Notes: generated from the letters alone by a model not told the origin. Positions 3,001 through 5,531 are shown, numbered from the stretch's first letter. The stretch: 34,314 nucleotides of DNA from Parachlamydiaceae bacterium (GCA_013815395.1 JACDGH010000002.1:1-34314); one strand, 5' to 3'. Program-made: numbers and translations.

Positions 3001-5005
3001 ATTGATTGAGGAAATTTTGGCACATGGGTTTTCCTTAGGATTTGGATATGATGCCATGGGACGCCCCATCAATGTATCCTTACCTAATAGAACCGGAATT
3101 GCTTTCAGATATCGAGGCCCATTTTTAGAGAAAATACAACGTCTTTCTTCTCAAAATACAATTACTTACGAACATGTTTATAATAGGTATGACCTATCTG
3201 GCTGTCTTATGGAGGCAAGCTTAATAGGTAGAGCTGGAAATCTAAATTATAGTTACGATAAAAATGACCGCTTAAAACAGGCTCATTCAGTGCATTGGGA
3301 AGAAACTTTGACTTATGACGTGGTAGGCAACCTTACTGAGGAACGGCTCAGAGATTTTAATGGAGAGGTCTCCTTAAATTATAGTTATAACGATCTTTAT
3401 CAATTACTAAGCGAAAGGGGTGTAACGAATCACAACTATCAATACGACTCGTTGTATAATCGAACGGCTAAGGACAGTAATATCCATGCACACAATGATC
3501 TAAATCAAATGCTGAGTGATGGCGATGCTGTCTATACATACGATTTAAACGGTAATATGTTAAATAAAGCCTCTGCGAATGAAACGATATGCTTTACATA
3601 CGATGCCCTTGACCGCTTAACAAGTTTGACTAATGGCTTACGCCAAGTCCGTTATTTTTATGATGAAGCAAATCGTCGCTTGAGCAAATCACTATATCAA
3701 CGAGGGACTAATGATGAGTGGGTATTTGAAAAGACGATAAAATACATTTATCAGGATCAAAATGAGATCGGATCGTTAAATTCTAATGATGAGATTGTCG
3801 AATTGAGATTACTTGGAATAGGAAGAGGGGCTGAGATAGGCGCAGCCATTGCTTTAGAGATCGACAATAAAGTCTTTGCCCCCATCCATGACCATGCAGG
3901 CAATGTTGCCTGCTTAGTTGAAGCTGAGACAGGATTAGTTTTCGAAACCTATCGTTATTCCTCCTTCGGTGAAGAGTTGTTTAATGATTCAGTATCCCCT
4001 TGGTGCTTTTCAAGTAAACGTGTGGACAATGAAAGTGGCTTAGTTTATTTTGGACGCCGTTACTATGATCCAGTTGTTGGTCGCTGGATTTCACAAGATC
4101 CTCTTGGCCGCGAAGGAGGCCCAAACCTCTATGCCTATGTCTTAAATAATCCTCAGACCAATTTCGACCTCTATGGATTAAGTACTGAAGGGCAAAGTGG
4201 TGGTGGTTTTAGTGGATTGCTTCAATCTATTAACGAAGGCATTAAATACATTTGCGACACCTGGCAAACTCAGTGCCCGATACCTATTCTGCGCGACTCT
4301 TTATCAGCTGTGCATCACTTTGCAACAAATGGAAATTTAAACACTTTTGAAATGCATCATCAGGGAACACAATCAACCAATGGACAGATTTATGGAATAG
4401 AGTTTTTAGATGATATCGTCATTGGATATTTACCTGGAATGAATAATACCGTTGAGTCAACAATAGGTGGAGCACAAAAAATTTCTAACTTACATGCAAA
4501 CTCTTCAGTCTATTATAGCCACTGTAAAGATCCAGGATTTATTTACGATATATGCAGAACAATCTTTCAAAAAATAGGTTTTAGGTCAACTCCTTCTACA
4601 AAGGCCGCAGAAATGATACGGGGGATGCTTAAAAAAGTAGGCCCCAATGGTCGTGTTTTGCTTTATACTTTTAGTAAAGGGGGTCAAACTGCAGCCGACA
4701 TGAAAATGTTCCTCACACCTGCTGAACGTAGTCGAATCGACGTTAAAACTTTCGGCTCTGCTAAAATGGTGTCCAAAAAGGATTTTGGAAGTGCTGAAAA
4801 CTTCATTAGCCCGACCGATGCCATCCCTTTAGTTGCAGATGGAATTGGCATAATTAGGAGTTTTTTCTCTGATAACATTAGTATTGAATTCCTAAACACC
4901 CGATCACTCCCCCTTATTGACCATTGCATTGAAGGGCCAACTTATATGCATGGGTTAAAAAAATGTGGTCAAAATATTATTGATCTTCAAATAAAAGGGA
5001 ATTAA
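2..5005 (+). CDS. RHS/YD-repeat polymorphic toxin, 5'-partial, with a non-repeat C-terminal toxin domain (alpha/beta-hydrolase-like)
   Basis: The ORF 113..5005 is 1630 aa. The same frame has no stop codon back to nt 2, so the gene probably continues upstream of the window. It contains many YD repeats (YEYDAFGRVTHITY, YSYDALRRIVKT, LTYDAQGRLKTS, YTYDALGRLSSLY, FTYDALDRLTSL). The RHS core-terminating motif RRYYDPVVGRWISQDPLGREGGPNLYAYVLNNPQTNFDLYGL ends at nt 4180. About 274 aa of unrelated sequence follow. Confidence 0.9.
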   Translation, partial: FTGFQGVKEYTIPCSLSETYCLSKETKSSGNTFQYHYMGIKHHGDYYRRARYDILTKVEVRSPNDTLTGIVNYVPLKRSDYTRFPHQDVVAGDGRSVRYYFEMLSRHDHRCENLLKKVERSDGPTETYHYIEGEKDVEMLVRRKNRPDGRFLNIKYYRKGGNIVGEDIVKISKKDDLIRNRVRAIQAPVGCDNTAINTYRFYYTINPLLHHEDKDAPRGGSTKVLDALSNKSIYTYGRDQRLKHIDRFASDGSLYSRESLLWSSLLSERSYLSARTLASESGALAFARTYSYDSAGNVLQDALYGNLSGHNTITPVILENGKAAENGCEFFRKELRYSENGANQLLWESDGFHESSFEYEKDANRLSAKFIGEPNKILLREFYEYNIEASITKKIIDDGSTKDRNNLTSVTQRHITYYYPRTTYPFGYPEVIIEKCLDIASGQEVLINKVVNTHNTQGLLVKQDHYDNSENYLYTLYWDYNAMGNLIREVNALQQISEWRYDPNGNCVYEQGFNPNEHKEFIYDLANRLVRQDEIHTDGTRRSISYCYNVLSQLVTLQDSFNNGTHYEYDAFGRVTHITYPTVADETGTYSSPTLTKTYNLMGNVASMTDSQGNKTEMSYTLRGQVAKTIYSDGSTESNIYSKDGLLLAACAKNGTKTAYSYDALRRIVKTEITTYSGELLSETSATYNGFHLTSETDAMGQVTFFNYYSNGALKSKQRAGSLTSLTYDAQGRLKTSIEHYGPNPDDVIVKTQEYDLLNRIIEERIEDSKGIFTKTNYTFDAAGQLIETRTGDGNTSTTVFDSYGTPSIITDGEGNQILTKRSFNYYNAVGQNVDFLEVTDALGNTAVSIFDTLGRVVSTTRKNSAGIILQQQDFVYDHNGNRCLLIDKIISGSSERSVVTKLVHDMLNRPIACYEAAGTPEQKYTQINYNAYGQKSSFVKADGTILYYTYDALGRLSSLYSSDHTIYYSYTYDQNNHPIKINDLINKTSTIKKYDQCGLLIEEILAHGFSLGFGYDAMGRPINVSLPNRTGIAFRYRGPFLEKIQRLSSQNTITYEHVYNRYDLSGCLMEASLIGRAGNLNYSYDKNDRLKQAHSVHWEETLTYDVVGNLTEERLRDFNGEVSLNYSYNDLYQLLSERGVTNHNYQYDSLYNRTAKDSNIHAHNDLNQMLSDGDAVYTYDLNGNMLNKASANETICFTYDALDRLTSLTNGLRQVRYFYDEANRRLSKSLYQRGTNDEWVFEKTIKYIYQDQNEIGSLNSNDEIVELRLLGIGRGAEIGAAIALEIDNKVFAPIHDHAGNVACLVEAETGLVFETYRYSSFGEELFNDSVSPWCFSSKRVDNESGLVYFGRRYYDPVVGRWISQDPLGREGGPNLYAYVLNNPQTNFDLYGLSTEGQSGGGFSGLLQSINEGIKYICDTWQTQCPIPILRDSLSAVHHFATNGNLNTFEMHHQGTQSTNGQIYGIEFLDDIVIGYLPGMNNTVESTIGGAQKISNLHANSSVYYSHCKDPGFIYDICRTIFQKIGFRSTPSTKAAEMIRGMLKKVGPNGRVLLYTFSKGGQTAADMKMFLTPAERSRIDVKTFGSAKMVSKKDFGSAENFISPTDAIPLVADGIGIIRSFFSDNISIEFLNTRSLPLIDHCIEGPTYMHGLKKCGQNIIDLQIKGN

Positions 5006-5006
5006 T

Positions 5007-5531
5007 ATGTTTTTTTTATTTTTTTTGTTTTTATCTTCTTGTTCACAAAAATATGACTACATAGACAAAGTAGACGCTGTTGTTAAAAAGGAAATTAAAA
5101 TTATTCAACAGATGGAAGACTTTCAGCTTTGTGGATATGGTGGAGCCATGTGTGATGGTATAAAAACCATTAATATAACATTTTCATCTTATCAAAAAGT
5201 TGATATTGCTCAGGCACGGCTAATGATAGTTCAAAGTATTGAAAAAATACGTAATGCAGTAAATGCTCAAGATGATTTAAAAGATTATCTAATTCCCTAT
5301 CCCTTTCCAACCAAGGGGATCGAGGTAAGTATCATGTTTTTGGAAGGTTTAGATTATATAAAATTTGGATGTGTTTGGCTTGGAACCGGCGGTGTTTCCC
5401 TCGTATCACAGCTAGATGGTATACTCTTTTATAGTTCCTATAACCCTCGAACAAAAATGCTTGAGAGATATTTTAATGAACCGTATGAGGAGGCATTAGC
5501 CATCGTAAATAACGAGTTAAAAAATAATTAA
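5007..5531 (+). CDS. small lipoprotein, candidate cognate immunity protein of the RHS toxin
   Basis: The ATG lies 1 nt after the RHS stop (TAA-t-ATG). An AAGGGA Shine-Dalgarno sits inside the RHS 3' end. The N-terminus MFFLFFLFLSSCSQ has a hydrophobic signal plus the lipobox L-S-S-C. Position immediately 3' of a polymorphic toxin is the canonical immunity slot. Confidence 0.6.
   Translation: MFFLFFLFLSSCSQKYDYIDKVDAVVKKEIKIIQQMEDFQLCGYGGAMCDGIKTINITFSSYQKVDIAQARLMIVQSIEKIRNAVNAQDDLKDYLIPYPFPTKGIEVSIMFLEGLDYIKFGCVWLGTGGVSLVSQLDGILFYSSYNPRTKMLERYFNEPYEEALAIVNNELKNN

Follow-up and report, generated by a model that had tools for sequence, protein, structure and literature searches.

A chlamydial RHS toxin gene with a predicted serine-hydrolase tip and an adjacent candidate gene for a lipoprotein immunity protein

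The DNA analysed here is a stretch of 34,314 nucleotides (nt) from a Parachlamydiaceae bacterium (GCA_013815395.1 JACDGH010000002.1:1-34314), referred to below as the window. It opens with two adjacent genes: an RHS gene whose product ends in a predicted serine hydrolase (the tip), and a short open reading frame (ORF) that is a candidate for the cognate immunity gene (Table 1). The RHS frame is already open where the window begins: no stop codon lies 5' of an ATG at position 113, and the frame remains intact over 1667 codons and closes with a TAA at 5003-5005. Alignment with a full-length relative of 1883 amino acids (aa), which is 61% identical to the window protein (locus L042), begins at residue 210 of that relative and leaves ~209 N-terminal residues outside the window. 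The incompleteness of the gene is due to the contig end, and an identical copy of the locus on the NCBI contig JAITZQ013258596.1 (assembly GCA_020064125.1; locus L001) also runs off the end of its contig. That assembly is a whole-genome project with >3 million contigs, in which the bacterium was probably sequenced along with a eukaryote, either as its symbiont or as a contaminant.

The greater part of the first gene encodes an RHS shell. Eleven stretches of the protein match PF05593 RHS_repeat in Pfam (E=5.4e-44), and the NCBIfam models NF041261 and TIGR01643 (E=1.9e-26) are matched as well, so that the window protein carries the YD/RHS repeats of RHS polymorphic toxins. The core domain that closes the shell spans residues 1282-1356 and all positions of TIGR03696 (1-76/76, 74.5 bits); it ends in NFDLYGL at nt 4180, where the sequence reads ...NNPQTNFDLYGL. 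Its terminating motif, D-L-Y-G-L, is a variant of the DPxGL type and is common to the chlamydial relatives. In RHS/TcC proteins, aspartyl autoproteolysis at the core frees the tip inside the shell, and by analogy the autoproteolytic site is presumed to be located in this core domain. Tip residues are numbered from the first residue after LYGL.

Table 1. Positions of the toxin, its predicted functional residues and the candidate immunity gene in the window
Feature	Position (nt)	Strand	Basis
RHS/YD-repeat shell of polymorphic toxin	2-4180	+	Matches to PF05593, NF041261 and TIGR01643; 5' end cut by window edge
RHS repeat-associated core domain (YSSFGEE...DPLGREGGPNLYAYVLNNPQTNFDLYGL)	3956-4180	+	TIGR03696; toxin begins after LYGL
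C-terminal toxin domain, 274 aa + stop	4181-5005	+	AlphaFold2 model, Foldseek, exhaustive homologue search
Gly86, oxyanion-hole region (YLPGMNNT), loop after strand 79-84	4436-4438	+	99% conserved; AlphaFold2 model
Ser165, predicted nucleophile (T-F-S-K-G-G; family consensus A-H-S-x-G-G)	4673-4675	+	100% conserved; strand 158-164/helix 166-177
Asp213, predicted catalytic acid (SPTDAIP)	4817-4819	+	99% conserved; directly after strand 204-209
His248, predicted catalytic base (LIDHC)	4922-4924	+	99% conserved; loop after strand 235-237, before C-terminal helix
Cognate immunity candidate, 174-aa exported alpha+beta protein, predicted lipoprotein	5007-5531	+	Adjacency, arrays, co-divergence, AlphaFold2 model
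Lipobox L-S-S-C, Cys12 = predicted lipidation site	5031-5042	+	Sequence; Cys + L(S/T)(S/A)C kept in homologues

The tip belongs to a large family that sequence libraries do not hold. An earlier note on this DNA had called the tip unclassified, which is correct for current libraries: neither the tip nor the downstream ORF has a match in Pfam, NCBIfam or the PDB sequences. When phmmer was run exhaustively over 1.84 billion cluster representatives (50% clustering, cut-off E<=1e-3), it found 784 relatives of the tip, 373 of them at E<=1e-10. A word-indexed protein search returned no relative with the tip alone and one protein with a 24-sequence profile; given the 784 relatives in the exhaustive search, the empty result is an index artefact, and we rejected the view of the tip as an orphan. 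Among the 150 best relatives, the RHS core lies just upstream of the domain in 97, and the other 53 are mostly shorter; many of these start with a signal peptide. The domain is internal in five of the relatives, four of which have a large C-terminal extension; in both proteins whose extension was scanned it is a eukaryote-type Ser/Thr kinase (Pfam Pkinase; P0071, E=3e-17; P0082, E=7e-21).

Four landmark motifs run through the tip in the order expected of an alpha/beta hydrolase: VIGYLPGMNNT from nt 4418, LLYTFSKGGQ from nt 4658, ISPTDAIP from nt 4805 and LIDHCIEG from nt 4913. Conservation was read from a local alignment of the domain segments of 147 relatives, in which the residues of the predicted triad are accompanied by Gly86, Gly119, Gly192 and Tyr255 (98-99%), Gly167 (97%), Asp123 (96%), and Thr190 and Asn207 (95%). 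Because Ser, Asp and His are conserved at 99-100% across these relatives, the motifs are not a product of chance; they correspond in turn to the oxyanion loop, the nucleophile, the acid and the base of a genuine hydrolase of the Ser-Asp-His type.

Structure prediction leads to the same place. The AlphaFold2 model of the tip, built on a 24-sequence alignment, has a mean predicted local distance difference test score (pLDDT) of 84.5, rising above 90 through the core, and a predicted template modelling score (pTM) of 0.76. It consists of two N-terminal helices (~residues 6-48) followed by an alpha/beta-hydrolase core (~residues 65-274), in which D213 is placed after the next-but-one strand beyond S165 and H248 in the last loop. 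The fold, the nucleophile elbow T-F-S165-K-G and the Ser-acid-His order, taken from the sequence order and the predicted strands, are thus those of alpha/beta hydrolases. All 91 Foldseek matches of the model to PDB structures at E<=1e-3 are alpha/beta hydrolases of the esterase, lipase or thioesterase kind (best E=2.9e-5), among them lysophospholipase A2, the acyl-protein thioesterases APT1/2, carboxylesterases, dienelactone hydrolase, feruloyl esterases, cutinase and monoglyceride lipases. We consider the alpha/beta-hydrolase fold and the Ser-Asp-His triad of the tip very probable.

Weak sequence similarities of the family lean towards lipases. Among PDB sequences, its profile marginally matches true lipases around the AHSxGG motif (6nkc, E=0.0018; also Bacillus LipA, family I.5 lipases and the Thermomyces lanuginosus lipase), and aligns Ser165 with the AHSMGG of LipA-type lipases. 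Pfam Lipase_3 gives sub-threshold matches in 12 of 24 members (best E=9e-5), none of which reaches the gathering threshold of 22 bits (best relative, 21.7 bits); the window tip has no match to it even at E<=1. Cutinase, Palm_thioest, Thioesterase, Abhydrolase_2 and DUF687 appear more rarely as weak matches among the same 24 members. The earlier note had proposed a lipase or phospholipase toxin. The hydrolase part of that proposal stands; the lipase class is something we infer, since the fold matches single out no one esterase class.

The second gene begins MFFLFFLFLSSC. Its start lies 1 nt past the toxin stop with a GGGA motif on its 5' side, and the ORF is probably translationally coupled to the RHS gene. 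Read from the sequence, its N-terminus contains a lipobox of the form [LVI][ASTVI][GAS]C. Homologues of this ORF are found in the 39 family loci described below, with phmmer E-values down to 5.7e-52, and jackhmmer collected 31 ORFs. A protein search added six further homologues that are 57-65% identical, and P0152-P0157, homologues in that range of identity, retain both the Cys and the L(S/T)(S/A)C motif. By a simple criterion, 22 of the 31 have a hydrophobic N-terminus, and at least 15 of the 31 have a lipobox-like Cys; several homologues start with MKK-, and others have ordinary cleavable-looking signal peptides. Judged by these N-termini, the immunity family is exported, in line with the exported lipoprotein-type partner that the earlier note had described.

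Position and copy number tie the ORF to the tip. In 20 of the 35 loci with enough downstream sequence, an ORF homologue starts between -143 and +10 nt from the toxin stop, and homologues also stand directly downstream of tip homologues in L041-L043. Both of the close homologues that were looked up begin 1 base after the stop of an RHS gene of 1883-1884 aa with the same kind of tip. Some loci carry tandem arrays of five (L029), four (L017) or two copies (L010, L014 and L027), with paralogues 15-79% identical to one another, which is the usual look of polyimmunity. The two longest stand behind a single tip (L029, ~688-3515, +; L017, ~358-2640, -), and such arrays occur in Waddliaceae and other chlamydial metagenome-assembled genomes (MAGs). 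Pairwise identities of the toxin domain and of the first downstream ORF are correlated over 19 loci (r=0.70, Mantel p ~2e-4), a correlation of which shared species phylogeny is possibly a part.

The candidate immunity protein resembles nothing in the reference collections. No Pfam family is matched by the ORF or by 20 of its homologues. Its AlphaFold2 model (pLDDT 89.2, pTM 0.83) shows a helix pair packed on a mixed sheet, and the best PDB structural neighbour is not significant (E=0.076). Because the model is confident and lacks a significant neighbour, the fold is unlike those of all solved immunity proteins. Taken together, a toxin with a variable tip and what appears to be its cognate immunity gene make up the arrangement expected of RHS polymorphic toxins, and we regard it as likely that the ORF encodes the immunity protein of the tip.

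Genomic loci of the family were collected with a degenerate DNA pattern derived from the fixed spacing of HSxGG, TxG and NYVxxxDxxP, applied to one genome per GTDB species. The scan yielded 39 loci, and hmmsearch identified all 39 as true family members. Their genomes are labelled as Chlamydiae, Chlamydiota, Parachlamydiaceae, Waddliaceae or similar in 25 cases and as Verrucomicrobia or Bacteroidetes MAGs in three, with 11 lacking a phylum label. Because of this taxonomy of the relatives (of 28 MAGs that bear a phylum label, 25 are chlamydial), a chlamydial origin of the window locus, which the earlier note had suggested from the surrounding genes, is supported. The three other labels (L010 and L028, Verrucomicrobia MAG OH_CBlB_266; L020, a Bacteroidetes MAG) could reflect mis-binning or lateral transfer. 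L010 has two immunity copies, as in chlamydial loci.

A neighbour-joining tree of 40 genomic domains and the window domain separates two clades. The window clade has the elbow AHSQGG or FSxGG. Its sister clade has HYAHS(L/I/M)G(G/A) and includes RHS-borne tips, short secreted proteins and kinase fusions, the last found in L021 (ORF 1045-3325) and L022 (ORF 1621-6265); the proteins P0039, P0071, P0075, P0077 and P0082 also belong here. The ORF family stands beside 20 of 22 domains in the window clade and, in the sister clade, beside none of the 15 domains that have enough downstream sequence. The split argues that the ORF goes with the toxin tip rather than with the shell. It also argues that the window clade needs protection of a bacterial compartment and that the sister clade behaves like host-directed effectors; the kinase fusions look like host-directed effectors, and the antibacterial tip may be either their ancestor or their descendant. 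Residues 1-60 of the window tip (window positions 4181-4360) form two lower-confidence helices with a PxPxxRD motif that is invariant in the closest relatives and absent from the sister clade. This N-terminal extension could be a lid, a membrane-targeting element or a shell-release element.

Signals for export are found in the relatives of the RHS protein. In both clades, the full-length relatives have a Sec-type signal peptide at the N-terminus; next comes a conserved GEPSxxVxGxVNVITGxY segment (a weak DUF6531 match), with TEN_YD-shell matches further on. Neither PAAR nor VgrG occurs in the full-length relatives, whether 49-61% identical or more distant. A survey of the neighbourhood for PAAR, VgrG and TcB-like partners, suggested by the earlier note, likewise found no component of a type VI secretion system (T6SS), no PAAR, no VgrG and no Tc component among the window's ORFs. 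Environmental chlamydiae are obligate intracellular bacteria with no known T6SS.

We propose that window positions 2-5531 constitute a polymorphic toxin module made up of two genes and belonging to a chlamydia-like bacterium. Its first gene would give a Sec-exported RHS cocoon protein, whose 274-residue tip would be cut after ...DLYGL by the aspartyl autoproteolysis of the core, as in other RHS proteins, and held in the shell. Once released, the tip would act as a serine esterase or lipase with an alpha/beta-hydrolase fold and the triad Ser165-Asp213-His248. The second gene would give the cognate immunity protein, exported, lipid-anchored at this locus and facing the periplasm, where the lipoprotein would neutralize the tip by direct binding. 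Because the immunity protein would be located in the periplasm, the substrate would be an envelope ester attacked from the periplasmic side, most likely membrane glycerophospholipids by analogy with the Tle/Tli pairs compared below. The module would serve in competition with other bacteria that live in the same host cell or niche, and delivery would proceed without a T6SS.

On balance we favour this explanation as a whole, that is, a chlamydial two-gene RHS toxin module in which a periplasm-acting esterase or lipase is paired with a lipoprotein immunity protein for bacterial competition with T6SS-independent delivery. Its parts differ in strength, and for the lipid substrate and for the bacterial target we put the chance, separately, at even or slightly better. 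All that the earlier note had observed in the DNA has held up, and most of its interpretation is supported. Translation and TIGR03696 reproduce its end of the RHS core, the length of the tip, the tip motifs, the spacing of the next ORF and its LSSC. The Ser-Asp-His hydrolase that it had recognized, with the residues in the predicted order, is borne out by the model, by its structural matches, none of which is non-enzymatic, and by the conservation of the triad. Its Tle/Tli-like logic draws support from the conserved adjacency, the immunity arrays and the correlated divergence, and its remark that the lineage is not known for T6SS agrees with the lack of markers in the window and in full-length relatives with Sec signal peptides.

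Several observations pull the other way and were weighed together. Next to the nucleophile the tip carries F164, a position at which 90% of the family carry His (HSxGG), and in the INGxxN oxyanion loop it carries P85 at a position that is Asn in 81%; no lipase or esterase family in Pfam, NCBIfam or the PDB sequences is matched by the tip itself. Its Foldseek template modelling (TM) scores are moderate (0.45-0.63) and do not distinguish lipase, thioesterase and carboxylesterase. Only 11 residues precede the Cys in the ORF's signal peptide, with no Lys or Arg among them, so the charged n-region of a typical signal is missing. Common ancestry of the species may account for some of the toxin-partner correlation. 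Sec export of the window RHS protein is an extrapolation from its relatives, its own N-terminus lying outside the window, and from a diderm producer such an exported protein would still have to reach another cell.

The two substitutions near the active site, together with the incomplete gene, could suggest that the tip is decayed and catalytically impaired and the locus a relic. We find this highly improbable: the frame is intact over its full length in the window and the truncation comes from the contig end, the triad is intact, and the Phe before the nucleophile is common to the window's whole sub-clade of intact RHS toxins with immunity genes (P0002-P0006, L002, L010 and L042). Doubt could also fall on the second gene, which might encode not an immunity protein but an accessory factor that the RHS toxin needs in order to fold, to be exported, to become active or to be displayed at the surface. 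The ORF is indeed unlike any known immunity family or solved structure, and at least one Tle lipase reportedly requires its immunity protein for activation (bioRxiv 10.1101/2023.03.28.534661); even so, diverged paralogue arrays behind one toxin, with up to five copies, are typical of immunity and not of chaperones, and the ORF tracks the tip and not the shell, being absent from RHS proteins that carry a sister-clade tip. An accessory role is therefore very unlikely in our estimation.

Two further readings accept an active hydrolase with another substrate or target. The fold and the toxin-immunity logic could be as proposed and the substrate a different one, such as the acyl chains of lipoproteins or lipooligosaccharide, the O-acetyl groups of peptidoglycan or another envelope ester. 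The spread of Foldseek matches over many esterase classes with no lipase-specific preference would suit this, as would the presence of Cutinase, Palm_thioest and Thioesterase besides Lipase_3 among the weak Pfam matches and the absence of an obvious lid domain from the tip as identified here. The commonest weak sequence matches are nevertheless to true lipases (Lipase_3 in half of the members scanned, LipA-type and family I.5), and the known serine-hydrolase toxins with periplasmic immunity are phospholipases of the Tle families; we think another substrate quite unlikely. Alternatively, the tip could be a host-directed effector that acts on eukaryotic membranes, amoebal or of the host vacuole, or on acylated host proteins, with the lipoprotein shielding only the producer's envelope during periplasmic transit. 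The lineage is obligately intracellular, the same hydrolase family is found fused to eukaryote-type Ser/Thr kinases or in signal-peptide proteins without an RHS core, the top structural matches include eukaryotic acyl-protein thioesterases and lysophospholipases, and toxins of intracellular bacteria have been described as mostly host-targeted (Zhang et al. 2012, PMC3482391). Against this, the effector-like forms sit in the sister clade that lacks immunity genes, whereas nearly all window-clade domains have one; diverged multi-copy immunity arrays are a signature of inter-strain conflict and not of simple self-protection; and the RHS shell already encloses the toxin during export. We consider a host-directed role for the window tip unlikely, and retain the two-gene module for bacterial competition as the preferred explanation.

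The window's other ORFs include those for an aconitase, NusB, MurB, a PHP protein, a Mur ligase, ClpB, a metallophosphoesterase, a branched-chain amino acid (BCAA) transporter, a dihydrolipoamide-dehydrogenase-like flavoprotein, a NAGPA-family protein and several unannotated products. Conserved synteny was rejected, as the flanking ORFs are not kept in related loci, and for this reason we take the two-gene module as the unit. We also rejected a second, orphan toxin/immunity cassette, there being no further copy of the tip, the ORF or the RHS core in the window, and a non-coding RNA explanation of the region, the only RNA gene detected in the window being one distant tRNA-Ser. This tRNA-Ser(TGA) (20146-20234, +) lies between the ClpB block and an AT-rich stretch of unannotated ORFs (20-22 kb).

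Base composition changes downstream of the toxin gene, with G+C at 27-37% over window positions ~5000-11000 compared with 38-40% in the RHS gene and 39-44% in the housekeeping block at 11000-20000. The low-G+C region contains ORFs at 5894-6514 (with a signal peptide), 6734-7213 (-, with AQEKSAIA-type repeats), 7550-9133 (527 aa, low-complexity), 9533-10141 and 10210-10746. These ORFs have no Pfam or NCBIfam match and no homologue in related loci; together they may form an island that codes for secreted proteins specific to the lineage. Elsewhere, a 122-aa ORF at 26087-26455 (-), with 26594-27094 (-) upstream of it, matches only the first ~55 positions of PF12252 (E=2.3e-6), the Legionella SidE phosphodiesterase domain; the rest is missing, and a BCAA transporter gene lies where the domain would continue. 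The ORF is probably the remnant of a SidE-like effector gene.

The wider interest of the locus lies in the family to which it belongs. A family of 784 representatives, mainly from chlamydial genomes and absent from curated libraries, is now defined together with an equally unannotated exported partner. The spread of an immunity-linked RHS lipase clade across Parachlamydiaceae, Waddliaceae and other chlamydial MAGs suggests competition with each other or with co-resident bacteria, and polymorphic toxins have been raised as a possible basis of the protection of amoebae against Legionella by chlamydiae (König et al. 2019). The contrast between the immunity-linked clade and the immunity-less clade with kinase fusions offers a natural experiment in the conversion of an antibacterial toxin into a host effector. 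One could go further and suppose that environmental chlamydiae fight other bacteria in and around the host with Sec-exported RHS cocoons, which would carry a lipase into the periplasm of a competitor along a path not yet described, and that the same family was later repurposed as a host effector by losing the immunity gene, with some members fusing to a eukaryote-type kinase. This extended scenario is tentative and we hold it to be doubtful; if true, such cocoon warfare would give access, at the molecular level, to the interference of symbionts with one another or with Legionella inside amoebae. The size of the family, its chlamydial restriction, the clade split, the unmatched immunity fold and the proposed T6SS-independent route make the module a worthwhile and testable lead.

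Comparison with known systems places the pair within an established scheme. Tle1-4/Tli, reportedly T6SS lipase effector/immunity pairs set out by Russell et al. in 2013, resemble it in having a Ser-Asp-His toxin with a GxSxG-type elbow, an adjacent immunity gene and a periplasmic product that is often a lipoprotein. They differ in that Tle toxins are free cargo and the window toxin is the tip of an RHS cocoon, with no PAAR, VgrG or Hcp among the window's ORFs and with Sec signal peptides in its relatives; no Tle Pfam family (for example, DUF2235) is matched by the tip or by 24 relatives, and nothing in the PDB matches the model of the window immunity protein in structure. Thus neither family membership nor VgrG/PAAR/Hcp linkage, the latter judged within the window's ORFs, would place the pair among Tle1-4. 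With regard to export, the pair resembles WapA of Bacillus subtilis and of Streptococcus suis, Gram-positive bacteria in which RHS/WapA toxins depend on Sec. WapA and the window family have in common a signal peptide, a YD/RHS shell with a polymorphic toxin at its C-terminus, adjacent immunity and T6SS-independent delivery. WapA, however, is wall-anchored in monoderms and has nuclease tips and cytoplasmic immunity, whereas the window producer is a diderm and its immunity protein is exported.

At the level of the catalytic domain, Lipase_3 (PF01764) and Bacillus LipA-type lipases have the A-H-S-x-G-G elbow, the Ser-Asp-His order and the minimal core in common with the tip family, although every family match to Lipase_3 lies below the curated threshold and the window tip has none. 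DUF687 (PF05095), a family of uncharacterized Chlamydia proteins, matches weakly over the hydrolase core in 2 of 24 members (E ~0.004-0.007); these matches are below threshold, do not extend to the window tip and make the relationship suggestive only. The closest precedents are the toxin domains Tox-ABhydrolase-2 and -3, found on classical polymorphic toxins including RHS proteins, of which ABhydrolase-3 is closest to class-3 lipases and ABhydrolase-2 was noted in a Parachlamydia endosymbiont, where no immunity protein accompanied it; the same authors consider complete toxin-immunity systems to be rare among bacteria with an obligately intracellular life (Zhang et al. 2012, PMC3482391). These domains are the same kind of C-terminal alpha/beta-hydrolase toxin on polymorphic toxins, and ABhydrolase-3 and the window family both lean towards class-3 lipases. 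Their listed partners are Imm66, Imm69 and SUKH, of which the ORF matches none held by Pfam, the comparison being otherwise by description only. The earlier note had seen Tle/Tli logic grafted onto an RHS cage, and according to the same survey an alpha/beta-hydrolase toxin on such a scaffold is no novelty. The principle of a serine-hydrolase tip on an RHS scaffold with periplasmic immunity is already established. What the window adds to the known RHS polymorphic-toxin scheme is a toxin family and an immunity family that both lack annotation.

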